64,000 nucleotides of DNA from an uncultured Chloroflexia bacterium. GTDB lineage: Bacteria; Chloroflexota; Chloroflexia; QHBQ01; JADMIH01. Both the position numbers and the translations under genes were made by a program. Location of the stretch: assembly GCA_963797095.1 (NCBI GenBank), contig CAWCNY010000001.1:384001-448000 (forward strand). Reading direction: 5' to 3'. Below are positions 28,511 to 44,404 of this stretch, piece by piece (the stretch's first letter is position 1; each line of letters opens with the position of its first letter). The notes under the pieces are model-generated. The model did not search any database and was not told the DNA's origin. It worked only from the letters and a program-made list of their open reading frames with translations.

Positions 28511-30199
28511 TCAAATCAGCTTCTCTCGGGCCGCGTATGCGATCGCAGCTGCCCGCGAGCGGACGTCCAGACGGGCCAGGATGTTGGTTACGTGTCGATG
28601 TACGGTGTGCCGGCTCAGGCTGAGCTTGCCGGCAATCTCTGCATCACTGAACCCCTGGGCGATCAACTTGAGCACTTCCTGCTGGCGTGCCGACAGCCTC
28701 TGTCGGCCGCTTGTCTGCTCAGGTTGCTGTTGGCGTCCTCGACGAAGATGATTCAGCAGACCTTCGGCGCGGGCCACCTGGCGCTCGGCGCCGAGCTCGC
28801 GGAAGGTTGCGAGAGCTGCCTGCGCCTCTCGCTCGGCTGCGGGCAGACGGTCGAGCGCTTCGAGTGAGGTGGCGAGGGCGACGCGAGCCTGGCCCATCTC
28901 GAACGGCGCGCCGCTACGTATGAACAGGTCTACGGCGTCCTCCAGCAGGCTGCGCGCCCGTTCGTGGTCGTTGGCGGCGGCCGCCGCAACGCCGGCGCTG
29001 AGGTTGGCGATGGCGAGCAGTGGCCCTGTGCCGATGCGATTGGCAACCTCCGCCAATTCGTCGAGAGCGACTTGAGCTTCCTTGAGATCGCCGAGGGCAA
29101 GATTGGCCCTCGCAACCAACTCCAGGCCCCTGACCCGCTCGGTACGGTTCTCACGAGGCATGCGGCGCAGATAGCGCTCGGCGTGATCAAGCGCGGTGCG
29201 CGCCTCGCCCAGGTCGAGCGCCAGCCACCCGAGCCCCAGTTGAGAGGGCGGGAAGTGCAGGGTCTGTTCGAACAATGCCACCGCCTCGTCGAGCCTGCCC
29301 TGCCGGTAGCGCAAATACCCGAGGCGTGCCACCGCTTCGGCCAGGAAGGCCGGGCGCGTGGCCTGCAGGGTGCTGGCCGCTTCGGCCAGCTCAGTCTCGG
29401 CTTCCCTCCATGCGCCCGACCAAAGCAACACACCCGCGTGGTGGCTGAGGCATACGCCGAGCAAAGGTGCGTACCCGATACGCTCGCAGTAGTCCTTCAG
29501 GCGATCGCACCATTGGATGGCCCTGTCGTAGTCAAACACCCGCTCGCACGCGAAGATCAGGCAGCAGCAGGTAGAGCCGATGGCCGTGCGGTTGCTCATT
29601 TCCCCGCCCACGGCCGCGGTGGTGGCCTCGTCCAGCCGGCGCATGCCCCCACGTAGGTCCCCTTCGCTCACCATGACGAAGCCCTCGAGGGCCAGTCCAA
29701 ACATTTCCATGTCGATCAGGCCCAGGGCACGCCCTATCTCAACCCCTTGTGCAGCCAGTTTGCGGGCGGTAATCGGATCCTCGGCCCACAAAATAGCGTT
29801 CTCGGCCTCCCGGAGGGCCAGCCAGCCATGCTCGCTTCCCGGCTCAAGGCCGTCCAGGAGGGTATGTGCGCGCTGCAGCCACCCGTTGGCCACGGCCATC
29901 TGGCCGCGCACTCCCAGGTAATCCCAGCCCAGCCAGATGGCTACGCGGGCCGCCGAGCGCCGGTCGCCTTTGCTTCGGTACATGGGGAAAGCTCGCTCCC
30001 GAGCTTCGAAGGCGTCGTCCAGGCGGTTCAGCCACCACAAGGCTGCGCCAAGCCCTTCCCAGGCCTCTGGCGTTTCCCGGCGGGCAAGGGCCTGGCGAAA
30101 GTGCCCCTCCGCTTCCTCCCAGGCTCCGCTCTCCAGCGCTTCGGAGCCTGCCGCCAGGGATGGGTCATCGAATTTGGCTAGTTCGGTAACGTCTATCAT
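28511..30199 (-). CDS. TPR-LuxR transcriptional regulator
   Basis: C-terminal LSARQQEVLKLIAQGFSDAEIAGKLSLSRHTVHRHVTNI; helical repeats; start 30199 or 30241. Confidence 0.9.
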   Translation of the reverse strand: MIDVTELAKFDDPSLAAGSEALESGAWEEAEGHFRQALARRETPEAWEGLGAALWWLNRLDDAFEARERAFPMYRSKGDRRSAARVAIWLGWDYLGVRGQMAVANGWLQRAHTLLDGLEPGSEHGWLALREAENAILWAEDPITARKLAAQGVEIGRALGLIDMEMFGLALEGFVMVSEGDLRGGMRRLDEATTAAVGGEMSNRTAIGSTCCCLIFACERVFDYDRAIQWCDRLKDYCERIGYAPLLGVCLSHHAGVLLWSGAWREAETELAEAASTLQATRPAFLAEAVARLGYLRYRQGRLDEAVALFEQTLHFPPSQLGLGWLALDLGEARTALDHAERYLRRMPRENRTERVRGLELVARANLALGDLKEAQVALDELAEVANRIGTGPLLAIANLSAGVAAAAANDHERARSLLEDAVDLFIRSGAPFEMGQARVALATSLEALDRLPAAEREAQAALATFRELGAERQVARAEGLLNHLRRGRQQQPEQTSGRQRLSARQQEVLKLIAQGFSDAEIAGKLSLSRHTVHRHVTNILARLDVRSRAAAIAYAAREKLI

Positions 30200-30350
30200 T
30201 GCAGGTGTTGCCTCAGTATAGCAGAGTCCCAAATCATTCACTACAAGTCAATCCCGGCGCATATGGTACTCACCGGAGTACCCAATCCAGGCGCGCCTTA
30301 TACCACGTACAGGTGATGGTCGCCGGGGTGCGAGATGGTATACTTATGCT

Positions 30351-30389
30351 ATGAGTTTGGGTCGCCAGGCCGCGCAGGGCGCTGTCTGG
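30351..30389 (+). pseudogene. 13-codon 5' stub of a paralogous flippase gene (MSLGRQAAQGAVW)
   Basis: 12/13 aa identical to the N-terminus of 6967-8451 (MSLGRQAATGAVW), with TATACT 6 nt upstream; cut by an IS6-like end GGAAGTGTTGCAAC at 30390. Confidence 0.75.
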
Positions 30390-30422
30390 GGAAGTGTTGC
30401 AACAACCGATGAAGGGGCTAAT

Positions 30423-30499
30423 GGCCTGTTGCTAAGATTCCGGCGAGAAGCTACAGGGTGCCAGATAACCAGCCAGGTTTGAGCGTGAACCAGTTGGTC
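30423..30499. mobile_element. Truncated second copy of the 18315-18527 MITE
   Basis: 77/77 nt identical to 18315-18391; interrupted by IS6 end at 30500. Confidence 0.85.
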
Positions 30500-30948
30500 G
30501 GAAGTGGCAGAATTGGGGGCAGTAGCTGGTTTAGATGCTGTTTGTCGGGTATCCTTAGCTGCATCAATCCCTATTCAGCCGAGGAGTACCTGCTCTACAT
30601 ATGATTTGTCCTCATTGCTCATCTGTCGCCACCAGCCAACTGGCCGAGAAGACCTCTTTGGGATATCAGGTCTTCCGTTGTAGGCACTGCAGACGCAAGT
30701 TCAACGAGCGCACTGGCACTCCTTTCAACTTCTTGGAGTTCCCCACTGACATTGTCCTGCTCGTTGTCCTGTGGCGCCTCCGATACAAGCTCAGCCTCCG
30801 AGACCTTGCAGAGATGTTTATCGAGAGGGGATTCGAGTTTACCCACGAGGCAGTTAGGGATTGGGAAGCACGCTTCGCTCCACTGATAACCGAGAAGTTG
30901 CGCTCCAGACGTAGAGGCAAGGCTGGCCGGTCATGGCATGTAGACGAG
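30500..30948 (+). mobile_element. IS6-family element, 3'-truncated (transposase from 30601, stops at WHVDE)
   Basis: IR GGAAGTGGCAGAA; CPHC..CRHC zinc ribbon; RYKLSLRDLAEM..THEAVRDW. Confidence 0.88.
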
Positions 30949-31944
30949 GGTAGTGTCAGAACTCAGGTCAGGCGATCTCAACTTTAGGGTTTTGAGTGTC
31001 TTGGCCATGGCTACGCCATACCACTGCTACACGCCTAGACTAACATCAGTTGCTTATGGAGGGCACCAAATCGCTGCCGAAACAGCTGGCGTTGTTCGGC
31101 CAAAGGCACCTTCTCCTTCGGCTTGCTGCGATACCGGAAGTAATCCCGCTGCTCGTCGAACGCCTGGCAGAACCTCCAGGCAGATTGAAACGAACTAAAA
31201 CCGCGCATCGGATAGTATCTCTGCTTGATACCCCGGTGATCCTGTTCCAGCCTGTTATTGAGATACCTATTGGTCCGGTGCTCTACCTTGCGGCCCAGTA
31301 TTCGGCGTATCGCACGCGGGTAGGCATCATGTCCGTCGGTGGTTACCCGAGTTGGCTTGTGGCCGACTACCTCCCTGGCCTGCCTAAACAAGCGTTTAGC
31401 CGCCTCCATATCCCGGTGCTCAGATAGCATGGAGTCCACCAGGTTGCCATCCCTATCTATGGCCCGATACAGGTAGCACCATTTACCACCGACTTTGACG
31501 TACGTTTCATCTGCGTACCACGACCGACCAGCCTTACCTTTACGCCTAGCACGCAAGCGATCGGTGATCAGTGGCGCGAAGCGCGCTTCCCAATCTCTCA
31601 CCGCCTCGTGAGTAAACTCAAAACCTCTCTCCAAGAACATCTCCGCAAGGTCTCGGAGGCTGAGCTTGTATCTCAGCCGCCAAAGGACAACGAGGAGCAC
31701 TATGTCGGTTGGGAACTGCAGATGATTGAAAACGGTACCGGTACGCTCGTTGAACTTGCGGCAGCACCGTGAGCAGCGAAAGGTGGAATAGCCCAGCGAT
31801 GTTTTGTGCGCCAATGGGGTAGTTGCGAGTGAGTAGCAATGGGGACAGTCCATGAGGAATCCTTATCGGCATCATTGTGTTACAGATGAGGATACTACAC
31901 GAACGACCCAATCGCCAACTCCAACCCTGATTTCTGACAGAACC
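30949..31944 (-). mobile_element. IS6-family element, apparently intact (996 bp; transposase 31035-31853)
   Basis: IRs GGTAGTGTCAGAA / GGTTCTGTCAGAA; DETY..YLYRAID..TTDG..NNRLEQDHR DDE motifs; no TSD. Confidence 0.93.
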
Positions 31945-32016
31945 AGTGTGTGCGTCGGTGCCCATACGCTTGGCCAATCGCTCCGCGAACTCAGGCTTGC
32001 CTATCCTACTAACCAT
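31945..32016 (-). pseudogene. N-terminal stub of a probable HU/IHF-like DNA-binding protein, cut by IS6
   Basis: MVSRIGKPEFAERLAKRMGTD resembles HU helix 1; follows the PIN gene directly. Confidence 0.35.
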
Positions 32017-32018
32017 AC

Positions 32019-32513
32019 TCAACTGACCAACTCATCTAGGGAAGCCTGGTCGTCTTTCTCAGGGTTCCACACAACTAGACCGCTTGCCTTAGCCGCAGTT
32101 GCCATTCGATTGTCCGATGTCACTAACGCCAAATCGTCCCCGCCTTTCCGAAACGACTGGCTCAACTGCAAAGCGCAACTCAAGATGATGGCGTCTGTGG
32201 CATTGAGCGAGTACTGCTCAATGAGAGGCAAAGATGCCAGCACCAAATCATCTGACACCGATTGGAGTGGGATCCCCGTGTTGCTAACCACTTCATTGTG
32301 AAATTCCACGATTGCCTGCCGGTAAACGGCATCAGAAATCTGTCCGGCGTTTCTCCGGCGCACAAGGATGGATATTACTTCTCCAAGAGCGAGCACCAGT
32401 GCGGTCATGCGCTCCTTTGAAACACTTTGGAATAAGTGGTTGACTAACGGTGTTCCGATCTCAGGAACGTATCGCTTGCCCAATGCACTGGCGTCAAGGA
32501 AGAAATAATTCAC
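32019..32513 (-). CDS. vapC: PIN-domain (VapC) toxin
   Basis: FFLDASALGKRYVPEIGT..E..LNATDAI..LVTSD. Confidence 0.88.
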   Translation of the reverse strand: MNYFFLDASALGKRYVPEIGTPLVNHLFQSVSKERMTALVLALGEVISILVRRRNAGQISDAVYRQAIVEFHNEVVSNTGIPLQSVSDDLVLASLPLIEQYSLNATDAIILSCALQLSQSFRKGGDDLALVTSDNRMATAAKASGLVVWNPEKDDQASLDELVS

Positions 32514-32546
32514 TCGTTGCTACCCTCTACTCCTCACTGCCCTTTA

Positions 32547-32912
32547 CTACTCTTCCCGCATAGCAATTATGCCACTGCTCAACAGGTTCTCTTCCGGACG
32601 CACACCCTCTCCCAGCATCATCGTTTGTAGCTTCTCAGCGCCAATCGGCTGAACGGTTATGCCTACTCGCGCAAACCACTCATCGAACCACTCTCCCCAG
32701 TGTGCCTTGTTTACCTGTTGATCTGGTCTGGCAGTTCCAGCAGTTCCAGCAGTTCCAGCGGTCCTCCAATCTTGTAGAGTTGCATTATTCGTGTTGGAGC
32801 TGGTGTTTGTACCGGTAAGTTTGTCCAAGACCAGATGCACCTCACTCAATTCCCGCTCAATCCGTTCGATCTTCTCCTGTAGATCATGCAAATCTTTCCT
32901 AATAGCTGACAT
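32547..32912 (-). CDS. Putative antitoxin (coiled-coil N-terminus; internal 9-nt repeat encoding TAG x3)
   Basis: Directly upstream of PIN gene on the same strand; GGAGG RBS. Confidence 0.65.
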   Translation of the reverse strand: MSAIRKDLHDLQEKIERIERELSEVHLVLDKLTGTNTSSNTNNATLQDWRTAGTAGTAGTARPDQQVNKAHWGEWFDEWFARVGITVQPIGAEKLQTMMLGEGVRPEENLLSSGIIAMREE

Positions 32913-33123
32913 GATATTACGCCTCCCAAGTGAAACGTCTGAGTGTTATGTTGTCATATTTGTTATACTCCAAGCTCTTTACTCTGTCCAAGTGCTAAAC
33001 ACGTAAGCGGCAAGCGGCCAGGTCTGAGTCTCTAAGTCTGAGTGCCAAAAAGGTCCCGATTTGGGCCATTGGACTGATCTACTCGCCTGCGTATGTGGGA
33101 GGCTGTGAAGTTGCGGATTCATT

Positions 33124-35003
33124 GGGATCTCCCGCGCTTTTGGTGAAGCAGCATGGCGGACCTCAAACATTGTAGAATCTAGTGAGCAGCCTTCCAATTT
33201 AATCCCCACTAACCCTCTGCTGCTCCTAGAAGACTATGCCGTGCTTGCTCAATTCTTATTGCCAGCGCCAGAAACCCTCGATTTGCGGGCCGTCCTTGCT
33301 GATGCCACTGGCCTCACCCTCGTGGTGGCTACAACTGCCCCCCACGTATCTTGTCCTACTTGCGAGGAACCGACCGCTCGGTGCCATAGCCGCTATCAGC
33401 GCATGCTTGCTGATGTTCCCTGGGCCAGCCTTGCCGTCCGTCTGCACCTGCAGACCCGCCGTTTCTTCTGTTCCAATCCCCTCTGTCCACGCCGTATCTT
33501 CACTGAACGCTTTCCAGCGCTTGCTGCCCCTTCCGCCCGACGTACCGCTCGCCTGACCACCCTGTTACACAGCGTGGGTCAGGCACTTGGTGGCGAACCT
33601 GGTGCTCGCCTCAGCCAACAGTTGAGCCTGCTTACTAGTCCAACCACCCTGCTACGTCTGGTACGCCAAACATCCGACCCGCACACCAGTGCACCCAGTA
33701 TCATAGGCATCGATGATTTCGCCTTTCGCAAGGGCCGTACATACGGCACCATCCTGGTCGATCATGAGCGCGGTCAGATTATTGACCTCCTGCCGGATCG
33801 CACTACGGAGAGTGTCGCCGCTTGGCTGCGTGCTCATCCCAGCGTCAACATCATTACCCGCGACCGCGCCGAGGCTTATGCCCAAGGAGCCGCACAGGGC
33901 GCCCCGCAGGCCACTCAGGTTGCCGACCGCTAGCACCTGCTGTGCAACCTCAGCGAGACCTTGGATGAAGTGCTCACCCGGCTCTACCCCGAATTGTGCC
34001 GGGCACTGACCGATAGCCCCGATGGCCCCGCGGCAACCTCAGACCTTACAGCCTCCCATACCACCAAGGTCTCAACCCAGCAACTCAGCGATCCTCCTGA
34101 GCAGGGAACCGCAGGGGCAACGCCTACCGCGCCGCTCAAGGATCACAACGGTCAAGCCGGCCTCAACTCGACAGGCCGAGTTAGTGCTCGTGTTCTCCAG
34201 TTGCAGCAACAGCGGCGGGAAGAACGCTTGGCTCGCTACGAGCAAGTCCACAGCCTCCGTCAGGCTGGCCAATCGATCCACCAGATTGCCTCTACCCTGG
34301 ACATGGGTGAGCGAACGGTGAACAGGTTCCTACGCGCAGCGGCCTTTCCCGAACGAAAACACCGGAGGCCTTCGGCACGTGAACTCGACATGTACAAGGA
34401 TTATCTGCGCCAACGCTGGGCGGGGGGCTGTCGAAATCGGGCGCGGCTATGGCGGGAGATAGAGGAGCTTGGATACAAGGGTGGTTCCTCCAGTGTATAT
34501 GCGTGGCTGTGTCAGTTGCATGGGTTGAAGCGCGATGAGCAGCGAGGCGGGGTCGATAGTCAACGGCGGCGGACGGTCAGCCTGCGGAAATGGAAGGTGC
34601 GTTTCGGGCAGCCAGCCGAGAAGTTGACGGTCGAGGAAGCGCAAGAGGTGGCACAAGTCTGTGCTGACAGCGCCGAACTGGGCAAAGTTTACAAACTGGC
34701 GCAGGAATTTGGGGCGATAGTGCGCGAGCACAAGCGGGTGGAGTTTGATGGTTGGCTCCAACAAGCACTGGACAGTGGAGTGGAGGAGATGGTACGGTTT
34801 GCCCGTGGATTGCAGGGGGACTATGCAGCGGTAGCCGCAGCAATCGAACTGGCTTTTAGCAATGGACCGACTGAAGGCCACGTCAACCGCCTGAAAGCCG
34901 TCAAACGGACCATGTTTGGGCGGGCTAAGTTCGACTTACTACGCAAGAGGGTGCTCTGTGCCAGTTGACAGCCAGCCCCTTCACCAAAAGCGCGGGAGAT
35001 CCC
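33124..35003 (+). mobile_element. ISL3-family element with nonsense-interrupted transposase (33241-34968, TAG at 33931)
   Basis: Perfect 25-bp IR GGGATCTCCCGCGCTTTTGGTGAAG; CPTC zinc finger, GIDDFA, TRDR, VADR*HL (expected W), SNGPTEG..NRLK. Confidence 0.93.
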
Positions 35004-35039
35004 ACTTAATTTCCAACTTTACAGGTTTTGAATGGCCTC

Positions 35040-35312
35040 CAACTACGGGGAGCGGTATCGCAATGGAGAGCGGATCAGCACCAGTTTCGCTGAATTGACT
35101 ATTAACCAGGTGATCAGTAAGCGGATGGCCAAGAAACAGCTGATGCAATGGACGCCAGAAGGAGCGCACCTACTGCTGCAAGTGCGGACTGCGGTAATCA
35201 ATGAAGATTGGGAAGACATATTCCGGACCTGGTATCCCCAGTTTCGGCTCGTGGCGTCAGACGAAGAGAACCGTGAAGCAGCCTGATGCCCCCGACTTTT
35301 CACTGCTCTCCC
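35040..35312 (+). pseudogene. ISKra4-family transposase C-terminal remnant with element end
   Basis: NYGERYRNGERISTSFAE.TINQVISKRMAKKQ.MQWTPEGAHLLLQVR; ends GCCCCCGACTTTTCACTGCTCTCCC. Confidence 0.8.
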
Positions 35313-35389
35313 TTATTGTAGCTGCGATAAGGATACCGGATAGATTACCTGAGCGCCAACTCTTGGTCCTGAGTTCTGCCGCTTCCCGT

Positions 35390-35581
35390 CAGTGCCGAGC
35401 TGCTCAAAACGGCTGAGCCACTTGCGGAGGGTAGGTCTGGAGATTCCGCACCGGCGGCAAACCAGACCAGCATCGCCCGTTCTTTGGAAGAGTCTTATCC
35501 ACCTCAATCTCTGCCTGATCTCGTCGTCCATGCGGCGATTGTATCATCAACCAATTGCAACCATGTCCCCGAACTTGAACA
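35390..35581 (-). pseudogene. IS481-family left end and HTH fragment
   Basis: End TGTTCAAGTTCGGGGACATGGTT at 35581; MDDEIRQRLRWI..GLVCRRCGISRPTLRKW. Confidence 0.75.
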
Positions 35582-35927
35582 CTTCTCGCATTGGGGACGA
35601 TTCTGTCCCGGGTACCCAGGATAGACGAGCCGCGATCCAAGAGTTGGCGACCGACGCCTTTGGGACCAGTGCCGATAACATCCAGATATTCGAAGGGCTA
35701 TTTCTGAGAAGCGAGCGGGTGTATCTCGCTTTAGTTCAAAAGCGTGACTCAGGAGATGTCTACGTAATCGGAACAGGTTTCGACCCTTACCATGTCCAGT
35801 TCCCCGAAGGATCGCGCTGGCGACAACTATCGCGGGCTGTCGGCCATTTGCTTCGGGCCGGAATGCTGAAAACTCCTGCGGAGAAGTGAGCCGACGCGGC
35901 CCTAGCTCTTACTGACAAGATCGCAGT

Positions 35928-36263
35928 ATGCCTCTGACAAAGATAACAGCTAGCTTTCTATACCTGATCTACATAGGCTCCAGTGGGTGGTGCCTGTTGG
36001 CAATATTGGAGCTTGTAGTTCGTATGGGTCATGGTTCTGGTATGTATTCCGATTACGGGAAAAATACTGGTGAGGTAGTTCTTGCTTTTGGATTTCTGGC
36101 CACACTCTTGTTATGGCTGGTAATTGGCACTGTTGTTGGTATCAAAGTGCTGCGTGGACAATTGAGTTCTGAGATGGCTCGGAACTGCAACACTTGGTGC
36201 TGTACTCATCATACTACCACCGACACTAGTATACCTCTTAGGCGTTGGGCACTCTTGAGGTAG
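35928..36263 (+). CDS. Small hypothetical membrane protein (two TM segments)
   Basis: Two hydrophobic stretches; no recognisable motif. Confidence 0.4.
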   Translation: MPLTKITASFLYLIYIGSSGWCLLAILELVVRMGHGSGMYSDYGKNTGEVVLAFGFLATLLLWLVIGTVVGIKVLRGQLSSEMARNCNTWCCTHHTTTDTSIPLRRWALLR

Positions 36264-36301
36264 CTACCTCGGCGCAGTGACGCAACTTCGGAGTAAAAAG
36301 C

Positions 36302-36769
36302 GTGGCAACTCTTCACCTAATGGTTGGACTTCCTTGCTCAGGGAAAACAACGCTTGCCAAGAAGCTTGAACAGGAACGCTCGGCACTCAGATTGACACCC
36401 GATGAGTGGCAGCTTGGTCTCTTTGGGCAAGATGCACAAGAGCCGGAACATGACGCCAGACATAGCTTTATCGAGGCCATGCTTTGGAATATCGCGAGCA
36501 GGGCGTTGGAATTGGGAGCGAACGTCATCCTCGATTTTGGCTTCTGGGCACGAGAAGAACGCGAAGATTTCCGGCAGCGGGCGAAACGAGTGGGAGCCAG
36601 CAGTGAGGTACATTTTCTTGATGTGCCAGCAGAGGAGCTACTGAGGCGGCTTGCTGTCAGGAACTCGCAACCCTCACAGGAGAGCTTCCACATTTCCGGA
36701 GAAAGCATGAAGCTTTGGATAGCGTTTTTCCAGAAGCCGACACCTGAAGAACTTGAACGGAGAGTATAA
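36302..36769 (+). CDS. P-loop AAA_33-type predicted kinase
   Basis: GLPCSGKTT, LTPDEW, VILDFGFWAREER, ELLRRLAVRN. Confidence 0.88.
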   Translation: MATLHLMVGLPCSGKTTLAKKLEQERSALRLTPDEWQLGLFGQDAQEPEHDARHSFIEAMLWNIASRALELGANVILDFGFWAREEREDFRQRAKRVGASSEVHFLDVPAEELLRRLAVRNSQPSQESFHISGESMKLWIAFFQKPTPEELERRV

Positions 36770-36772
36770 CCC

Positions 36773-37243
36773 ATGTTCAAACGGAAAGAAGCATCCAAAC
36801 CGAACCCAGCCCTTGAACCCTTCCATGTATTGATTGGAAGCTGGAGTACGACCGGAACACACGGTCAAGACCCAGGTACTATTCTCCATGGGCATACCTC
36901 GTTCGAATGGCTGGAGAACGGAGCATTTTTGCTGATGCGCTCGGAGATTGACGATCCGCGCTTTCCGAGCGCCGTCGCGATTATTGGCAGCGACGCTGCT
37001 AGAGACGATGCTGAAGGCGAATACTATATGCTCACCTTTGATGAGCGCGGTGTCTCAAGAAAGTATGAAGTTAGCCTGCGCGACAATATCTGGAAATGGT
37101 GGAGAGACGCGCCAGGTTTCCTCCAACGCTATGAGGGTATCATTGAAGACGGCGGTAATACTATAATCAGCAAAGGAGAGTTGTCGAAAGACGGCCTATC
37201 CTGGGAGCAGGATCTCAACTTGACGTACAAGCGGGTTGAGTGA
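36773..37243 (+). CDS. Conserved hypothetical beta-barrel protein (DUF1579-like)
   Basis: LIGSW..SFEWLENGAFL..FDERGVSR..WEQDLNLTYKR; stop codon supplied by the adjacent element. Confidence 0.7.
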   Translation: MFKRKEASKPNPALEPFHVLIGSWSTTGTHGQDPGTILHGHTSFEWLENGAFLLMRSEIDDPRFPSAVAIIGSDAARDDAEGEYYMLTFDERGVSRKYEVSLRDNIWKWWRDAPGFLQRYEGIIEDGGNTIISKGELSKDGLSWEQDLNLTYKRVE

Positions 37244-37460
37244 TGACTCCACGTCGGCTAAAGCCGAGCAGCTTCTACGGACTTTCACCGATGCATACTC
37301 ATCCATATGCAACTAAGGTTTGCACTATAGGAGACACCTGAGATGCTTTTACATGACGCAAGGATTTCTACGTCACAACCCGCTAACATCTTGCATTATC
37401 AAAGTGCGGACTACTACCCGAAGGCAATAGTGGCGTGTAGCATTGGTTAGCTGCCACGCT
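37240..37460 (-). ncRNA. Predicted ~220-nt structured RNA (TnpB omegaRNA-like scaffold) reading out through the right end
   Basis: Extended -10 TGgTATAAT (37467-37475); hairpins CTATTGCC-TTCG-GGTAGTAG, TGACGTAG..CTTGCGTCA, TGCAA..TTGCA; no sizeable ORF on this strand. Confidence 0.6.
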
Positions 37461-37552
37461 ACCCACATTATACCACAAAAGGAGAGACTATGAACGACCT
37501 TTTGTCCGCCTCACCGCAGCCCATAAATGGGCGTGGCTTTAGCAAAACCTCG
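37240..37552 (-). mobile_element. Non-autonomous IS200/IS605-family element (PATE-like) carrying an omegaRNA-like ncRNA
   Basis: Minus strand: TTAC|..AAAG + hairpin GCCCATTTATGGGC (left end); GAAG + hairpin + TCAC (right end), 31/40 identical to the right end at 41651-41690. Confidence 0.82.
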
Positions 37553-37611
37553 GTAAGCAGCAATGAAGTGCGCGTAGGACCGGAGCGCACAACGTAAAGT
37601 AGAGCAACTCG

Positions 37612-38079
37612 ATGACAGACACGTTCGAGACCAAGTTACGTGCAGCACTTGGGAATAGTGGCTCAAGCAGCAGGAACCTTTCGGCCTTCGCGCTAGACAT
37701 CGAGCACTTTATGGAGAAAACGGGACTGTTCTCGCGCATTCAGCTCAAGAAGACCGGAGAACCCAAGCGTGCGCTGCTCATGACCTGTCAGCTCTCCGAC
37801 CCAACCACCCTACCAGACCTGGTAATTGAGAAACTGGCGCAGGTTTGGAACGAAACTCCACTGGGTTGTGGCGGAGAGTACGATGCATACGAGTTCCAGC
37901 ACAGCGCTGAGGACATCCCCATGAGGTTTGTTATTGTAGCGGTCCACGAAGCCCTTGTCACTGGAGAGGTTTTTGTCGCGGGCTTTGCTGAGCGCGAGTT
38001 TGGACCTACGGTGGCCGAGCGCGACGAGGCAGGCACCTTCGACCGTTGGGTATTCGACAAATGTGCATGCACCACCTGA
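37612..38079 (+). CDS. Hypothetical protein
   Basis: 155-aa ORF co-oriented with neighbours; no motif recognised. Confidence 0.5.
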   Translation: MTDTFETKLRAALGNSGSSSRNLSAFALDIEHFMEKTGLFSRIQLKKTGEPKRALLMTCQLSDPTTLPDLVIEKLAQVWNETPLGCGGEYDAYEFQHSAEDIPMRFVIVAVHEALVTGEVFVAGFAEREFGPTVAERDEAGTFDRWVFDKCACTT

Positions 38080-38558
38080 TCCACATCGAGCAGCCAGACG
38101 CGCCCATCTTCAACTTCAGAGCAGCAGCTATAATCCTTGACGGAGAGTGGGTGCTTCTGCACAGGGCTGAGATCGACGATTTCTGGGCACCGCCTGGTGG
38201 GCGCGTGGAGTTGGGCGAGGCAGCAGCAGAGGCGCTCGCTCGTGAGATGCGCGAAGAGACCGGCCTGCAAGTACGTGTCGGGCGGCTCCTCTGGGTGGCA
38301 GAGAGCTTTTTCACGTTCGAGGCTCGTGCCCAGCATGGTATATGCTTCTACTTCCTCGTCCACCTGCCGGAAGGCTCTTCCATCCTGGACAAAGATAAGC
38401 CGTTCGCCGGACAAGAAGAAGAAGGACTGAAGCTGGAGTTCTGCTGGTTCCACCGGAGGGACGTTGCCGATCTCGATGTTCGGCCTGCCTTCCTGAGGGC
38501 TGCATTGCAGGAGCTACCTGATACACTTGTACATATCCTCGATGTTGAAAGAAGATAG
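38061..38558 (+). CDS. NUDIX hydrolase
   Basis: Nudix box GGRVELGEAAAEALAREMREETG. Confidence 0.92.
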   Translation: MCMHHLIHIEQPDAPIFNFRAAAIILDGEWVLLHRAEIDDFWAPPGGRVELGEAAAEALAREMREETGLQVRVGRLLWVAESFFTFEARAQHGICFYFLVHLPEGSSILDKDKPFAGQEEEGLKLEFCWFHRRDVADLDVRPAFLRAALQELPDTLVHILDVERR

Positions 38559-38618
38559 CATCTGACTTCTACCGGCTGCAGGCCAGACCGCCTGACCGCA
38601 GGCCTCACGACGCAACAG

Positions 38619-39641
38619 CTACCAGGCGAGGCTATCCAGATGGTTATGGCCCGAGAGCACGCGAGCAATTCGCTCCCGCGCCGCTGCGCGTACGTCAGGC
38701 GCAGGGTGGTGTGCGTAGAGCGCGAGCTCCCTCTGCATGTCATAGAAGAGCAACCGGTCGTGCAGACGCTCGCCCTCGAACAGTTCCGGATAGGCGCTCC
38801 GCAGCCATCCCGGGACCGCACTGAGAGTGGCCTCGTCGAGCCCTCGCTCGCCAGGTACAGGTGGGTACTCGCCCGCCTTCGCGCACCATCGCAGGATCGT
38901 GTCGAGTTCGACGTCCGCCGGCTGGGCCAACAACTCCGCGAAGTCGACAATGCCCGTGACGCGTCCTTCGTCGACGACCACGTTGGATCCGTGAACGTCG
39001 CCATGGACGAGCACGGGTTCGTCGCCAGCGAACAACGGTTGCCGTTGCTGGATCCAAGCAGTGACCTCCGAGAGGAGGCGTGCGTCGTGACCGGGTTGTC
39101 GCCGGGCGCTCTCGACCGAATGGAGCGCGGCATTCACCACGGGTGGGTGGAACGAGACCCGCGGCTTGCCGGTGAGCGCGTCGGCCAGCCAGGGTGGCAG
39201 CAGGTCCGCCGCGACCGGAACCCGGTGCAGCGCGCGCAGCGCAGTTCCGAGGCTCTCGATCATTGCTTGGCGTGTGGGCACGTCCGCCGCCGGCCACGCG
39301 TCGTGCAGACTTCGGCCGGGCAGACGTTCGCCGATGTACCACGGTCCGTCCGGGCCCTCGCCGTGGCCGAGGAGTTGGGCGTGTGGGACCTTGGTGCCGG
39401 CGAGCAGGTTGATCACGGTAGCCTCGTGCTGAAACGAGTCGCGAAACCGCACGTCGCTCAGTCGTACGACGATTTCGTCTCCTATCCACACGCGGTTAAC
39501 CCAACCGTGCTTCGCAACAAAGCGTCCGGTTGCTGGCAGACCAGCGGCCGCCAGCGTCCGACGTAGGGCCGGATCGTTGGCGGGCTCGTCGATGAACGAT
39601 ACTGACCGGCCGGTCACACCACGCATTCTCACACCACACAC
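38619..39641 (-). CDS. Aminoglycoside-phosphotransferase (APH)-family kinase
   Basis: LRALHRV, LVHGDVHGSNVVV..GIVDF Brenner motif; start uncertain. Confidence 0.85.
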   Translation of the reverse strand: MCGVRMRGVTGRSVSFIDEPANDPALRRTLAAAGLPATGRFVAKHGWVNRVWIGDEIVVRLSDVRFRDSFQHEATVINLLAGTKVPHAQLLGHGEGPDGPWYIGERLPGRSLHDAWPAADVPTRQAMIESLGTALRALHRVPVAADLLPPWLADALTGKPRVSFHPPVVNAALHSVESARRQPGHDARLLSEVTAWIQQRQPLFAGDEPVLVHGDVHGSNVVVDEGRVTGIVDFAELLAQPADVELDTILRWCAKAGEYPPVPGERGLDEATLSAVPGWLRSAYPELFEGERLHDRLLFYDMQRELALYAHHPAPDVRAAARERIARVLSGHNHLDSLAW

Positions 39642-39900
39642 GACCTAACCCGAATCCAAGCCACCTGCAGCCGTCGCCGGTAGAACCCGACGACCGCCTC
39701 CTCTGCTCAAGCGCCTACCCGGAGCGGCAGCTTGCCTGGCCCATCAGTCCGGATAACTTTTACTGTACCTGATGAGCACCCAAACGTCAACTTCCCTCTA
39801 TACGTACCTAGGGCTTACGCATCTAAATGAGAGGCAAACAGCCACGGCGCTCGCAGGCGGATTTGGTAAGATTGCGGTAGCCACATGCAAAGGAGCTATC

Positions 39901-40062
39901 ATGCAATCAAGTGATGACCAATGCGCGGCGCTTGAGCAAAGACTACGAGGTGAAGCCCGCCGTCAGGGAGAGTTGGATTCTGCTGACGATGTGTCATCTG
40001 ATGCTCCAGCGCCTCGGCCCAGCGAGCCACAAACGCCGCGCCCGCCAGCCTCGAGATTGTGA
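39901..40062 (+). CDS. Small hypothetical protein (53 aa)
   Basis: AAGGAG RBS before ATG 39901. Confidence 0.3.
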   Translation: MQSSDDQCAALEQRLRGEARRQGELDSADDVSSDAPAPRPSEPQTPRPPASRL

Positions 40063-40160
40063 CAAGGTTTCCTAACAGCCAATCATGGGCCTACGGCTCA
40101 CCACCAAGGATGAAAATGGGTGTATGCTTACAATCTACAGATTTGGTGCATACTTAGGGC

Positions 40161-40550
40161 ATGGAGTACCAACGAGACGAACACCAAGTCCACCTGATTG
40201 TGTACCACCTTATCTGGTGTCCTAAAAGGCGCAAAAAGGTGCTTGTCAAAGACGTTGCGAAGGACTGCAAGGCTCTCATTCAAGAAGTATGTGCCTCTCA
40301 GGACTGGCAGATATTGGAGCTTGCTATCATGCCGGACCACATTCACTTGTTTGTAAGGGCACGACCTACGGATAGTGCGGCTGATATAGTCGGCAGGATA
40401 AAGGGCAGAACGTCGCACGACCTTAGAGAGAAGTACCCGCACCTGCTGAAACTCCCTAGTCTGTGGACAAGGTCGTACTTTTCGAGCACAGCAGGCAATA
40501 TCTCGGCTGACACCATTCAGAGGTACATAGAGGAGGAGAAGGGTATTTAG
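40161..40550 (+). CDS. tnpA: IS200/IS605 Y1 HUH transposase TnpA
   Basis: YHLIWCPKRR, MPDHIHLFV (HUH), LWTRSYF, IQRYIE (catalytic Y). Confidence 0.95.
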   Translation: MEYQRDEHQVHLIVYHLIWCPKRRKKVLVKDVAKDCKALIQEVCASQDWQILELAIMPDHIHLFVRARPTDSAADIVGRIKGRTSHDLREKYPHLLKLPSLWTRSYFSSTAGNISADTIQRYIEEEKGI

Positions 40551-41624
40551 ATGCTGGTCCGCCGCACCTACAAGTACATCCTTCGTCCTACCAGCAGGCA
40601 AGCACGTCTGTTGCAGCACAACATTGATTTGTGCAGGGAGTTGTACAATGCCGCCCTGCAACACCGTAGGGATGCCTATCGCATGGCAGGAAAGAGCGTT
40701 AGCTTTGCTGAACAATCCTCTGCGCTTGTAGAGTGCAAAGAGCGGAGACCAGACCTTGCCGACGTGTACAGCCAGACGTTGCAGGATGTCCTTCACAGGG
40801 TAGACAAGACCTATAAGGCTTTCTACGCACGTGTGAAGCGTGGCGATAAGGCTGGCTTTCCCCGGTTCCGCTCCTATGACCGGTACGATAGCTTCACCTA
40901 CCCTCAGTTGGGTTGGTCTCTCCAAAACGATAGATTGACGCTCTCCAAGATTGGCACTATCAAGCTGAAGTTGCACTGGCCTGTGCAGGGCAAAGTCAAA
41001 ACCGTACAAGTCAAGCGGGAAGGCAGCAAGTGGTTCGTGTGCTTCTCTGTCGAAACTGAGATACAAGTCCCTATTCATACCGGGCCTGCTGTCGGTATAG
41101 ACGTTGGCTTGGAGCACCTTGCCAACCTTTCTACCGGAGAGCAGGTCGAAAACCCCCGCTACTACCGCCGAGGGCAGAAACGGCTTGCCAAAGCGCAGAG
41201 GCAACTTGCTAAAGCTATTAGTATTAGGATGCATCGGGGGCGTAGGGAGTATCGCAAGCGTGTGGTTAGCTGCCACCGCAAGGTGCGTAACCAACGTGCC
41301 AACTTCTTGCACAAGTTGTCTCTTCGGCTGGTACAGACCTACTCCCTGATTGCGATAGAGAAGTTGTCGGTCAAGGGGTTGGCAGGCGGGATGCTTGCCA
41401 AGGCTGTGAATGATGCAGCGTGGTCTATCTTCACCGCACAACTGAGGTACAAGGCAGAATGCGCCGGTACGCAGTTGGTAGAGGTAGACCCGTCCTACAC
41501 TTCGCAGACCTGCCCAAAGTGCGGCAGCATCCGAAAGAAGGAACTTTCGGAACGTTGGCACCATTGTGATTGTGGCTTTGAGTGTCATAGAGATGTTGCC
41601 GCCGCTATGGTCATTCTTGCATGA
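40551..41624 (+). CDS. tnpB: RNA-guided endonuclease TnpB (357 aa)
   Basis: CRELYNAAL, GFPRF, RuvC GIDVG / IAIEKL / HRDVAAA, TSQTCPKCG..CDCG zinc finger. Confidence 0.95.
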   Translation: MLVRRTYKYILRPTSRQARLLQHNIDLCRELYNAALQHRRDAYRMAGKSVSFAEQSSALVECKERRPDLADVYSQTLQDVLHRVDKTYKAFYARVKRGDKAGFPRFRSYDRYDSFTYPQLGWSLQNDRLTLSKIGTIKLKLHWPVQGKVKTVQVKREGSKWFVCFSVETEIQVPIHTGPAVGIDVGLEHLANLSTGEQVENPRYYRRGQKRLAKAQRQLAKAISIRMHRGRREYRKRVVSCHRKVRNQRANFLHKLSLRLVQTYSLIAIEKLSVKGLAGGMLAKAVNDAAWSIFTAQLRYKAECAGTQLVEVDPSYTSQTCPKCGSIRKKELSERWHHCDCGFECHRDVAAAMVILA

Positions 41625-41690
41625 GGACTATCGTGCATGGGTATCCAATCCCTAGAAGCTACCTGGCTTTAGCCGGTGTAGAGTAGTCAC
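41625..41690 (+). ncRNA. IS200/IS605 right end / 3' part of TnpB omegaRNA
   Basis: GAAG-CTACCTGGC-TTTA-GCCGGTGTAG-AGTAG-TCAC. Confidence 0.8.
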
Positions 41691-41786
41691 GCTTGTTAAG
41701 TGCCTTTCGATAGGCGTCGGTCTCCCTTGCATTGGTTAGCTATCTCTGCTGACTATCCCGGAACGTTGAGTTGGGGCTGGACATCG

Positions 41787-42782
41787 GGCAGTGTCAGAAG
41801 TGGCGGCACACAGTCTCCCCAGTGAGGCTTATAGCGTCTTGGCCAAGCCTTAGGCCAAGGCTATCGCTTGCCGTTATGCCGTCATCAGCAGATATTGCAG
41901 GGCACCAATCTCTGCCTGAATAGGCGGCGTTGTTCGGACAGGGGTACCGTTTGTTTCGGCCTGGTGCGGTACCGGAAATAGTCCCTCTGCTCATCATAAG
42001 CCCGGCAAAGGCGTGAGGCCGAATCGAACTTCCCGAATCCGCGCATAGGGTAGTAGCGCTGTTTGATGCCTCGATGGTCTTGCTCGAGGCGATTGTTCAA
42101 GTAGCGGTTCGTGCGATGAACCACTTTTCGTCCGAGTATCCGGCGTATGGCCCGCGGGTAAGAATCGTGTCCGTCAGTAGTCACCCGATCTGGTACGCAC
42201 CCAGTCACATCTTTGGCCCCCTTGAAGAACTTCTTGGCTGCATCCATATCTCGCTGCTCCGAGAGCATCGAGTCCACCAGATTGCCATCCCCATCTATGG
42301 CACGATACAAGTAACACCATTTGCCACCAACCTTGACGTATGTCTCGTCCGTGTACCAGGACCGACCAACCTTACCTTTGCGCCTGGCACGTAGTTGCTC
42401 GGTGATCAGAGGAGCAAATCTGGCTTCCCAATCGCGTACAGCTTCATGAGTGAACTCGAACCCTCGGACCAAGAACATCTCTGACAGGTCGCGAAAACTC
42501 AACTTGTACCGGAGCCTCCACAGGACAACCAATAGGACCACATCCTTGGGGAAATGAAGTTGATTGAAAAGAGTACCAGTACGCTCGTTGAACTTGCGTT
42601 TACACTGCGAGCAGCGGAAAGTAGAATAACCGAGGGAGGTTTTGCCTGCCAACTGAGTAGTCGCAGAAGATGAGCAGTAAGGACACTTCATCAGGATTCC
42701 TTGTCAGGATGATTCTATCTATGGCAAGGATACCCGATGAGTTGCCTCAATACCAGCCCACACCCTGATTTCTGCCACTTCC
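41787..42782 (-). mobile_element. IS6-family element (996 bp; transposase 41885-42691 with 1-nt deletion near C-terminus)
   Basis: IRs GGCAGTGTCAGAA / GGAAGTGGCAGAA; full DDE motifs; adding one A near 41907 restores RFGALQYLLMTA, matching the other copy. Confidence 0.92.
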
Positions 42783-42845
42783 TCGCAACTTCGCACCTTC
42801 CGGTACAGGGAGCTGAACGGCGGGCAATAGACCCGCTCCGAAAGT

Positions 42846-42880
42846 GATCAAGATGGGCAGCGAGACTGCCCATCTTGATC
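42846..42880. terminator. Perfect 15-bp hairpin, likely terminator of the ydcF-like gene
   Basis: GATCAAGATGGGCAG-CGAGA-CTGCCCATCTTGATC immediately after stop at 42882. Confidence 0.75.
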
Positions 42881-42881
42881 G

Positions 42882-43490
42882 TTAATTCCTCTGCCCAACA
42901 AGAAACTTGACCTGGTACAGCATCAGCGATAGGGCATCGCGGCTTACCGTAAATGTCTTTATGTAGAGGTTATTCCAGTTTTGTGAGTCGACCGCTGGGG
43001 ACGGGTAGACCGTGATCTCTTGTCCCCAGATGTCGTGGGCGATCAGCGTGCTGCGCTTGATATGGAAAGGCTCCGTGACCAGGATCGCGCTGTGCCATCC
43101 TTTCGACTGTATGATAGCCTGGCTGTGTTCGATGTTCTGGATAGTGTTGTACAAATCGCTCTCGCGCACAATGGCGTCCGAGGGCACGCCATCGTCTTCG
43201 AGCACACGACTCAACACCGAGCTTTCTGTGGGGTTGCCGGTGGCAATGACATTGCCCGCGTATCCCTCCTTATAGAGGTCGGCGGCGTGGCCCCCGCGTG
43301 CGACCATGCAGGCGCTTGGCCCGTTTTGCCCGATGGGATTGCACCCCAGCACCACGATCACATCCGCGTGGGCCACGTAATCCGTTTCAGCCCCGGCAGC
43401 CACATACGCCGCGTCAATCCCGAACCAGAGTGCGGGCAGCAGTAAAGCAAGTGCCGACCACTTCAAAACGCGCCGCATCCTGGATCTCAT
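42882..43490 (-). CDS. YdcF/DUF218-family envelope protein
   Basis: N-terminal TM, ADVIVVLG, NTIQNI, ILVTEPFHIKRS. Confidence 0.87.
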   Translation of the reverse strand: MRSRMRRVLKWSALALLLPALWFGIDAAYVAAGAETDYVAHADVIVVLGCNPIGQNGPSACMVARGGHAADLYKEGYAGNVIATGNPTESSVLSRVLEDDGVPSDAIVRESDLYNTIQNIEHSQAIIQSKGWHSAILVTEPFHIKRSTLIAHDIWGQEITVYPSPAVDSQNWNNLYIKTFTVSRDALSLMLYQVKFLVGQRN

Positions 43491-43593
43491 AGTATTATTC
43501 TAGCACGAAGCCCCCTGCTGCTTGCTAATGGCTTCTCTTTGAGATAGAATTAGTACGTGATTTCGGATTATCCACCAATGAGGATATTATTCA

Positions 43594-44046
43594 ATGTCGA
43601 ATAAATCAACCACCATAGGGATTGTGGACGAGATAATTGACCTGGACGGTATGTTGCAGCAGATCCTGCGGAACAGCTGGCCTGAGACCTGGCTGCAAAT
43701 CAACCTGCCGGTCGGGTCGACACGTGCGCTGTTTGCAATCGAGAGCAAGGAAGCGCGCACGCCCGGCGGGGTGGCCGAGGCGCTTGGCGTGAGCCGTACC
43801 ACGGTCACAGGTATGCTCGACCGCCTTGAGGGTGAGGGCCTGCTTACCCGCTCCATCGACCCCAACGATAGGCGCTGCTTCATGCTTGAGCTTACGCCAA
43901 AGGCGCGCAGCCTGATCGAAGAGATAGAGGGGAGTCGTCGCGACCGCTTGAATGAGGCACTAACCTCTATGTCCCAGGAAGAGTTGCAAGCTCTCCGTAC
44001 AGGGCTTGGGGCGCTGCTCCACCAAATGCAACCGCCCAACTTATAA
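43594..44046 (+). CDS. MarR-family regulator
   Basis: VAEALGVSRTTVTGMLDRLEGEGLLTRSIDPNDRR..LTPKA. Confidence 0.92.
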   Translation: MSNKSTTIGIVDEIIDLDGMLQQILRNSWPETWLQINLPVGSTRALFAIESKEARTPGGVAEALGVSRTTVTGMLDRLEGEGLLTRSIDPNDRRCFMLELTPKARSLIEEIEGSRRDRLNEALTSMSQEELQALRTGLGALLHQMQPPNL

Positions 44047-44141
44047 AGCATAGTCCATAGAAGAGTTATCAGGAGACATATTACATGGCGAACAGCAAAT
44101 TGCATCACATCCACTATAAGGGGTAAACCCAACATTCGTGA

Positions 44142-44201
44142 GTTGAACTAAGCCGCTCCCTCGCGAGAACGACTCGTCTTCAAAACCGGACATGAACCGT
44201 T
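44142..44201 (-). mobile_element. 3' stump (half of domain V + domain VI) of a group II intron related to 18528-19378
   Basis: GGTTCATGTCCGGTTTTGAAGACGAGTCGTTCTCGCGAGGGAGCGGCTTAGTTCAAC, near-identical to 19322-19378. Confidence 0.85.
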
Positions 44202-44404
44202 TGGGCTTACCCCGATACAAATGACTCGGTGATATTGGATTGGTGAGTGCGCTCGAAGGCCTCAGGGCTCATGTAGCCGATGGCCGAATGCCGCCTCTTT
44301 CGATTGTACCAAACTTCGATATATTCGAAGATGCTCTGCCTGGCTTCCGAGCGCGAGGCGTAAACGCCGGTTGCGCATTCGGCCTTGAGCGTCGACCAAA
44401 AGCT

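Follow-up and report, generated by a model that had tools for sequence, protein, structure and literature searches.

The question raised by this locus is why a small insertion without genes, bounded by the ends of an IS200/IS605 transposon, should carry what looks like a guide-RNA gene, and whose proteins would move and use it. The window, that is, the whole stretch of DNA analysed (64,000 nucleotides from an uncultured Chloroflexia bacterium), contains at 37240-37552 on the minus strand a protein-free IS200/IS605 derivative of 313 bp with precise boundaries. An earlier note on the same DNA had described a minus-strand element of this length without a sizeable ORF; all of its coordinates are correct, and no ORF of at least 40 aa lies wholly within the element on either strand. 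The element, its target and its left end are located as follows.

37240-37552, minus strand: whole element, free of ORFs, delimited by copy boundaries and by empty sites at six of seven orthologous loci and in one run contig.
37553-37556, minus strand: TTAC target tetranucleotide 5' of the left end and predicted TAM for TnpB, found at 7 of 9 full-length copies; the relatives' empty sites keep GTAA (plus strand).
37519-37540, minus strand: left-end recognition region, with AAAG at 37537-37540, then the hairpin GCCCA-TTTA-TGGGC at 37519-37532.

Read along the minus strand, the left junction runs from TTAC (37556-37553) through CGAGGTTTTGCT and AAAG (37540-37537) into the hairpin GCCCA-TTTA-TGGGC (37532-37519), the order that had been reported for 37556-37519. 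The right end consists of GAAG, a hairpin with a UUUA loop, and TCAC, the last base being 37240, and the reported gap-free identity of the last 40 nt to 41651-41690, at 31 of the 40 positions, was found again. Subterminal hairpins are thus present at both ends (37519-37532 and 37249-37271) and terminal inverted repeats are absent. In IS608, the guide AAAG specifies the target TTAC and GAAT specifies TCAA; the pair GAAG/TCAC of this element presumably follows the same code. The 12 nt between TTAC and AAAG in the window copy (37541-37552, CGAGGTTTTGCT) resemble the reverse complement of the segment found there in other copies and in relatives (AGAAAACCTTG / AGAAAACCTCT), which would be a small inversion inside the left end of this copy.

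A DNA search of the own genome (6.0 Mb in 8 contigs) found 11 close copies including that of the window, nine of them full-length and two truncated at the 5' side. The other eight full-length copies are near-identical to each other and 85-86% identical to the window copy; similarity among the copies stops precisely at the element ends, and the flanks are all unrelated. It starts directly after TTAC in seven of the nine full-length copies, with CAAC and GTAC before the remaining two, and every close copy ends in ...GTCATCAC. With a covariance model of the RNA (R1), the stand-alone copies in this genome number 17 and fall into several subfamilies (11 close and 6 divergent full-length copies). 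Two other protein-free loci were seen in the same genome, a relative of ~90 bp with similarity at its left and right ends only (C6:415034-415124) and an element with the same left and right ends and a different promoter region (C3:433438-433772).

Empty-site alleles are present as well. Six of the seven orthologous loci examined in same-genus genomes are empty sites, joined at TTAC without duplication, while the seventh diverges past the junction; at the empty loci the conserved gene end (the homologue of 36773-37243) runs straight into GTAA and the downstream DNA. In one contig of an RNA-library run from soil, 37236 is connected to 37553, and three letters in between differ. From the empty sites, the join in the run contig and the copy boundaries it follows that the insertion is exactly 37240-37552 (313 bp) and made no target duplication, and this signature of an element is far beyond chance. 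The earlier proposal of a TnpA-mobilisable element, with other copies showing TTAC before the left end, variable right flanks and no TSD, is borne out by the IS-like ends, the TTAC target, the 11 close copies (TTAC at 7 of 9, all flanks different, duplication absent) and the empty sites at six of seven orthologous loci and in one run contig. The near-identical dispersed copies and the empty sites are indirect signs of excision and insertion by TnpA.

The insertion point itself deserves a remark. The stop codon of the conserved plus-strand gene 36773-37243 is the precise insertion point of the window element (37240-37243 / 37553-37556). The gene of the relatives ends in GAG TAA, where GTAA is the complement of the target TTAC, and that of the window ends in GAG TGA, where GTGA is the complement of the right-end TCAC; the insertion changed GAG TAA to GAG TGA, and the protein of gene 36773-37243 is therefore unchanged. 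The end of an ORF on the opposite strand is abutted in the same way by three of nine copies (including those at C3:357746 and C3:686314 of the own genome).

The nearest source of transposon proteins in the window is an IS at 40130-41690, which has the following parts.

40161-40550, plus strand: tnpA, Y1 transposase of 129 aa, candidate mobiliser (Pfam Y1_Tnp, E 3.5e-38; HIH and SYF motifs).
40551-41624, plus strand: tnpB, 357 aa, candidate trans partner (Pfam OrfB_IS605 and Cas12f1-like_TNB; 8H1J, E 9.6e-46; identical copy on contig C3).
41606-41690, plus strand: omegaRNA core linked in cis to tnpB, together with the right end of this left-truncated IS, placed by covariance model alignment.

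The resident TnpB aligns over residues 5-354 to the TnpB of ISDra2 (8H1J, E 9.6e-46), and the RuvC residues D, E and D are present. The left end of this IS is lost, the identity to its twin on C3 beginning 30 nt before the tnpA ATG (region 40070-40130). The twin has a complete left end, in which TTAC is followed by AGAAAAACTTGAAAGCC and a hairpin, and an identical tnpB. The left end of the small element is ~90% identical to that of the C3 IS over 67 nt, with compensating changes in the C3 hairpin. On account of this match, the 31 of 40 identities at the right end and the TTAC target, the small element shares left end, right end and target with the tnpA-tnpB IS family, and since its ends are those of the resident tnpA-tnpB IS, TnpA could mobilise it. 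A special role for the neighbouring TnpB, as suggested in the earlier note, is not upheld: the IS beside the element is left-truncated, an identical tnpB lies in an intact IS on another contig, and the other 16 stand-alone copies are elsewhere. No tnpB match was found within 1.5 kb of any of the 17 stand-alone copies in the own genome, and the nearness of the element to the truncated IS looks incidental. The genome has three intact tnpB genes, to be set against 17 stand-alone RNAs.

This neighbourhood has some further features. The stop codon of the resident tnpB, TGA at 41622-41624, comes ~20 codons before the end of related TnpBs; a decayed copy on contig C1 and relatives read past that point as ..GGLSSIGIQSVEAT.., through the omegaRNA core. 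The early stop was counted against the use of this TnpB by the element RNA. In the structural account of ISDra2 TnpB, the C-terminal tail is described as poorly conserved and disordered (passages of PMC10097598). The region collects mobile elements. A DDE transposase of IS240 type lies at 41885-42691 on the minus strand, 200 nt past the IS right end (Pfam DDE_Tnp_IS240, E 1.7e-37). At 44405-44484 on the minus strand there is a match to the 3' part of a group II intron, for which Intron_gpII scores 36.4 bits (gathering score 40, E 4e-4) and the domain-5 model 40.3 bits (E 3.6e-6).

Within the element, an extended -10 pointing to the right end had been noted, and it is confirmed as a promoter-like site that recurs in relatives.

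37467-37494, minus strand: promoter-like site, TTCATA, a 16-nt spacer and a TG-extended TATAAT (promoter scan 10 of 12, TG present).

The -10 reads TGG+TATAAT at 37475-37467; the scan found 3 promoter-like sites per 1 kb, compared with 0.8 +/- 0.9 in shuffles. In 19 of 31 rows of the family, as read by eye from the alignment, a -10-like hexamer coincides with the RNA start or shortly precedes it. In the largest subfamily of the own genome the TG of the extended -10 is lost, and six of its copies have CATAAT. No terminator was predicted after the right end. From the promoter-like site we infer that the element would be transcribed from its own promoter. In a search of sequencing runs, the best run contains 0.27 of the sampled words and one RNA run 0.06, none reaching 0.5 or more; in contigs built from four runs, the RNA run leaves the RNA body uncovered and has no bearing on transcription. 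On the plus strand, opposite the RNA, 37478-37492 contains a strong Shine-Dalgarno sequence and ATG (GGAGAGACTATG) reading outward through the left-end hairpin; other copies share this feature, as does the intact IS on C3. In most copies this gives a 21-codon ORF, translated by hand, that terminates at the TAA within the target GTAA; in a second left-end family, GGAGGGCTTTATG takes this position. The Shine-Dalgarno-like stretch may instead be a hairpin (ACAAAAGG/CCTTTTGT) or a -35 region.

The predicted RNA is ~225 nt long and rich in hairpins, among them the hairpin with a UUCG loop that had been reported, found at 37431-37410. In an alignment of nine sequences, made with homologues from two relatives, RNAalifold gave 61 pairs, of which 27 are compensatory. 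The covariance model R1 found 23 matches in the own genome, namely the 11 close and 6 divergent full-length copies, 4 at tnpB 3' ends (~100-146 nt) and 2 weak ones. When 33 matches from the class were aligned, 91.6% of the cells pair, compared with 32-44% with slid partners, and 54 of the 61 pairs are compensatory, both values coming from an alignment fitted to the model. The covariation looked for with a covariance model is thus present in the same model-fitted set of 33 sequences. G-U and U-G cells (170) outnumber A-C and C-A cells (45), and the RNA structure therefore belongs to the minus strand, that is, to the element strand. In the comparison with Rfam, no family matched at E up to 1, neither on the element (window 30000-46000) nor on the RNA at nine homologous loci.

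The RNA was present in 29 of 151 genomes of the class sample, a tally that, like the 13 of 151 given below for the 5' domain and the genus count of RNA-positive genomes, includes the unpublished genome G016; no other result depends on that genome. A pattern scan of genome contigs gave eight loci, four of them on contigs of Chloroflexia MAGs; R1 was tried on five of the eight and matched the Chloroflexia one only. The same pattern occurs at seven loci in metagenome contigs, two of which are matched by R1.

The 3' part of this RNA connects it to TnpB.

37240-37310, minus strand: 3' omegaRNA-like core, from the model alignment to the tnpB-linked RNA 41606-41690 and the pseudoknot.
37293-37310, minus strand: core hairpin Ha, with the pseudoknot loop at 37299-37303.
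37279-37290, minus strand: core hairpin Hb.
37272-37275, minus strand: GAAG of the core.
37249-37271, minus strand: right-end hairpin, with the UUUA loop at 37259-37262.
37242-37246, minus strand: pseudoknot tail.
37240-37243, minus strand: TCAC.

R1 aligns the last ~85 nt of the element RNA to 41606-41690 (match 41591-41690; 47.3 bits, E 6e-12), a stretch leading from the tnpB stop codon to the IS right end. In relatives whose tnpB reaches nearly to the right end, the equivalent stretch encodes the TnpB tail, and the short R1 matches adjoin a full or near-full tnpB at 9 of 25 loci in relatives. A MAFFT alignment, not fitted to structure, of the 3' 90 nt from 16 stand-alone RNAs and 10 tnpB-linked ones shows a pseudoknot: five nt in the loop of the first hairpin pair with the tail at -7 to -3, with 95.3% of cells paired and three of the five pairs compensatory. 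All five pairs form in 12 of the 16 stand-alone rows and in 10 of the 10 tnpB-linked rows. Passages of Nakagawa et al. 2023 (PMC10097598) place the pseudoknot of the ISDra2 omegaRNA at -5..-3 and the UUUA loop of its terminal stem at -20..-17. Because the pseudoknot and the UUUA terminal loop are as in that RNA, the last ~75-85 nt of the element RNA, on alignment, is a compact relative of the TnpB guide-RNA scaffold. The omegaRNA-like nature of the RNA is thus supported by homology of its last ~85 nt to the RNA at tnpB 3' ends. Of the earlier statement that the body of the RNA is unlike the tnpB 3' region, the part on the 5' ~140 nt stands; for the last ~85 nt it fails, given the match (47.3 bits, E 6e-12) and the shared covarying pseudoknot.

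The pseudoknot has changed repeatedly. Stand-alone RNAs have four versions (GAUGA/UCAUC, GGCGG/CCGUC, GGCAA/UUGUC and GACGG/CUGUC) and tnpB-linked RNAs two (GACUA/UAGUC and GAUUA/UAAUC), and no version is common to both. As the sequences of pseudoknot and hairpins differ (GAUGA/UCAUC in the stand-alone RNA versus GACUA/UAGUC in the resident tnpB-linked one), compatibility of the element RNA with the resident TnpB is an assumption.

The 5' part is peculiar to the protein-free elements.

37311-37466, minus strand: 5' RNA domain, with P1 at 37434-37458, the UUCG hairpin P2 at 37410-37431 and the composite long helix P3 at 37322-37407, supported by covariation and by R2 matches.

These ~140 nt have no counterpart in the tnpB-linked RNA and include invariant unpaired stretches. 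A second model, R2, built from the 5' domain only, gave 17 matches in the own genome, all of them stand-alone copies and none at tnpB. In the class sample it matched 13 of 151 genomes from three families, and no tnpA or tnpB lies within ~1.5 kb of the 17 R2 loci checked. In the phylum sample it matched 4 of 151 genomes; besides the own genome these are two further members of the class and one from outside it, and in this last genome the right-end core is also present at one R2 locus. The 5' domain is joined to the omegaRNA core at every locus whose neighbourhood was checked. The RNA body was also searched for relics of TnpB coding sequence: with the C-terminal 140 aa of two TnpBs as tblastn queries, none of 10 RNA bodies gave a match below E 0.5. 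At 10 tnpB-linked loci, RNAalifold applied to the final 260 nt returned essentially the three 3' hairpins only, and thus no conserved structure within tnpB ahead of the core. Two lookalikes near tnpB, noticed by eye, were considered and rejected: CTTTGA..AGATGTT at 41575-41600, which resembles the start of P3, and CCGCAC..GTGCGG at ~41430-41525, which resembles a P3-like helix. R2 matches no tnpB locus in the own genome, all 17 of its 17 matches being stand-alone copies. The 5' ~140-nt domain is probably accessory; it may, for instance, stabilise, or assist the loading of, an RNA made without cutting of a tnpB mRNA. A bolder suggestion, possible and, in our judgement, rather doubtful, is that the domain is an adaptation peculiar to effector-less guide-RNA genes, a module that gets the RNA made, kept and loaded onto the nuclease of another transposon or onto a different protein; on this view the elements would form a separate class of hyperparasitic, self-promoted guide-RNA genes and not be deletion remnants of an IS.

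The architecture of omegaRNAs points to the flank as the guide.

37220-37239, minus strand: predicted guide, formed by the flank into which the RNA would continue beyond the right end; it lies antisense to the final codons of gene 36773-37243, which is conserved.

This flank is unique in the genome, with no second TTAC-adjacent match; the 17 copies have 17 different flanks, and a search of the own genome for secondary targets of the 17 guides found no TTAC-adjacent site with two or fewer mismatches. We think it reasonably probable, taken as a whole, that TnpA mobilises this element, which is of the PATE kind, and that its RNA uses TnpB in trans so that the empty site of the element is cut again. 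The Y1 TnpA would excise and insert the element as single-stranded DNA 3' of TTAC, and the promoter would drive a ~225-nt structured RNA that continues past the right end and enters the flank. Of this RNA, the final ~75-85 nt would act as scaffold, with the loop-tail pseudoknot hairpin next to the guide, a small second hairpin and the terminal hairpin with the UUUA loop. The RNA would be loaded in trans onto TnpB from a full IS, and with the flank as guide TTAC plus flank would be cleaved. By analogy with known omegaRNAs, binding of TnpB, cleavage and homing may be attributed to the element RNA. Excision of the element leaves TTAC plus flank as its empty site, and recombination would therefore bring the element back. 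Being moved by TnpA and restored via TnpB, it would use both proteins of another transposon. The different flanks, the want of second targets, the lack of a predicted terminator and the co-occurrence of TnpB and RNA in the genus were counted as fitting this mechanism. TnpB (E 1e-20 or better) and the RNA are both found in G000, G001, G015 and G024, while G016 (66% complete) has the RNA alone and G005 a distant TnpB alone, a co-occurrence that is expected for any IS derivative and comes from related, non-independent genomes. Among distant genomes, TnpB homologues were found in five of five RNA-positive ones tested, a rate with no baseline for comparison.

Other explanations for the RNA can be weighed against trans-guided homing. 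TnpA might still move an element whose RNA no longer serves any TnpB, the structure being the legacy of an ancestor and left without a cognate nuclease. That the stand-alone pseudoknot versions never equal the tnpB-linked ones agrees with such decay, as do the weakened -10 box in the most numerous subfamily and the two copies truncated at the 5' side. The compensatory changes within the stand-alone lineage, with four pseudoknot versions, argue that the RNA is still under selection, and the persistence of 5' domain and core together in three families of the class speaks for the same, so that decay seems unlikely. Another option is that the RNA binds TnpB chiefly to keep it away from the parent IS, or to lower its activity, and not to guide the element's own homing. 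An excess of 17 stand-alone RNAs over 3 intact tnpB genes would suit a decoy, and the extra 5' domain could raise stability or affinity; there is, however, no indication of a defective guide, and with the scaffold terminating precisely at the right end, a usable guide from the flank would be part of every transcript, which makes a decoy very unlikely in our view.

The 5' domain or the whole transcript might instead have a role unrelated to TnpB, such as antisense action on the flanking gene or its regulation, protein binding, or activity as a small ribozyme. The absence of the 5' domain from all tnpB-linked RNAs and its invariant unpaired stretches would fit, and RNA reading through in the window would run antisense to the last part of a conserved gene. 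On the other hand, an ORF end on the opposite strand is abutted by only three of nine copies, no Rfam match was obtained at E up to 1 in the window region or at nine homologous loci, and the 5' domain is always joined to the omegaRNA core where the neighbourhood was checked; we regard such a role as quite unlikely. Finally, the pairing might act in DNA, the hairpins folding in the single-stranded transposition intermediate and mattering to TnpA, not as RNA. TnpA is known to require just the subterminal hairpins, G-U wobbles are frequent (170 cells), and a promoter-like site stands in front of the structure. IS200/IS605 elements do move as single-stranded DNA, on the same strand, and TnpA reads DNA hairpins at both ends, as stated in passages of PMC10055086; the loop-tail pseudoknot, in turn, matches the RNA pseudoknot solved for TnpB (passages of PMC10097598), and an effect in DNA only appears highly improbable.

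Taken as a TnpA-mobilised element with a trans-acting guide RNA, the locus offers a clean natural case of a guide-RNA gene travelling without its nuclease, with exact boundaries, empty sites in relatives and a strong covariation model. A compact TnpB scaffold of ~75-85 nt, in which the pseudoknot sequence has been replaced repeatedly with pairing kept, is useful for the design of minimal guide RNAs, and the turnover of the pseudoknot bears on how freely TnpB accepts foreign scaffolds. The 5' domain, occurring only where no tnpB lies upstream, gives a handle on what a trans guide RNA needs as opposed to a cis-encoded RNA from mRNA. Current views are not overturned, the general idea being already in print. 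A literature search, made largely in open-access text without supplements, found no description of this RNA family, or of a conserved 5' domain or promoter on stand-alone TnpB guide RNAs.

A trans-acting guide RNA on a protein-free element is an established concept, on the strength of passages in PMC10055086 and PMC10691335. The PATEs of Geobacillus stearothermophilus, according to passages of Meers et al. (PMC10055086), frequently encode omegaRNAs that need TnpB in trans; like the present element they are free of ORFs and share their ends with a TnpA-bearing IS, and they differ in phylum and in the RNA. Stand-alone omegaRNAs of OMEGA systems, without effector and transposase and expected to act in trans, exist as well, as stated in a passage of Altae-Tran et al. 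2023 (PMC10691335) that summarises 2021 work. These too are mobilised, lack effector and transposase and share a genome with effector-bearing loci; the passage adds, with reference to the 2021 paper, that their action in trans has been demonstrated. Compared with what that passage describes, the present RNA is of TnpB type with a 3' guide, has a covarying 5' domain of 140 nt absent from the cis RNA and its own promoter-like site, and is known here from sequence alone. The IStrons of IS605 and IS607 type, with a group I intron ahead of the omegaRNA (passages of 10.1101/2023.11.20.567912), resemble the element in placing a large structured RNA domain before the scaffold within one transposon, whereas the domain of the element is only 140 nt long and gives no Rfam intron or ribozyme match, and tnpB is absent.

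The closest comparison for the core is the ISDra2 omegaRNA, as described in passages of PMC10097598. The core of the element measures ~75-85 nt as against 116 nt in ISDra2, the 5' strand of its pseudoknot lies ~60 nt upstream as against ~104 nt, and its UUUA loop stands at -23..-20 as against -20..-17. A small hairpin takes the place of the long stem 3 of ISDra2, and the predicted TAM is TTAC where ISDra2 has TTGAT. Common to both are a scaffold that ends at the right end, a pseudoknot that uses the last nt before the guide, a UUUA tetraloop, and a homologous partner protein (E 9.6e-46).
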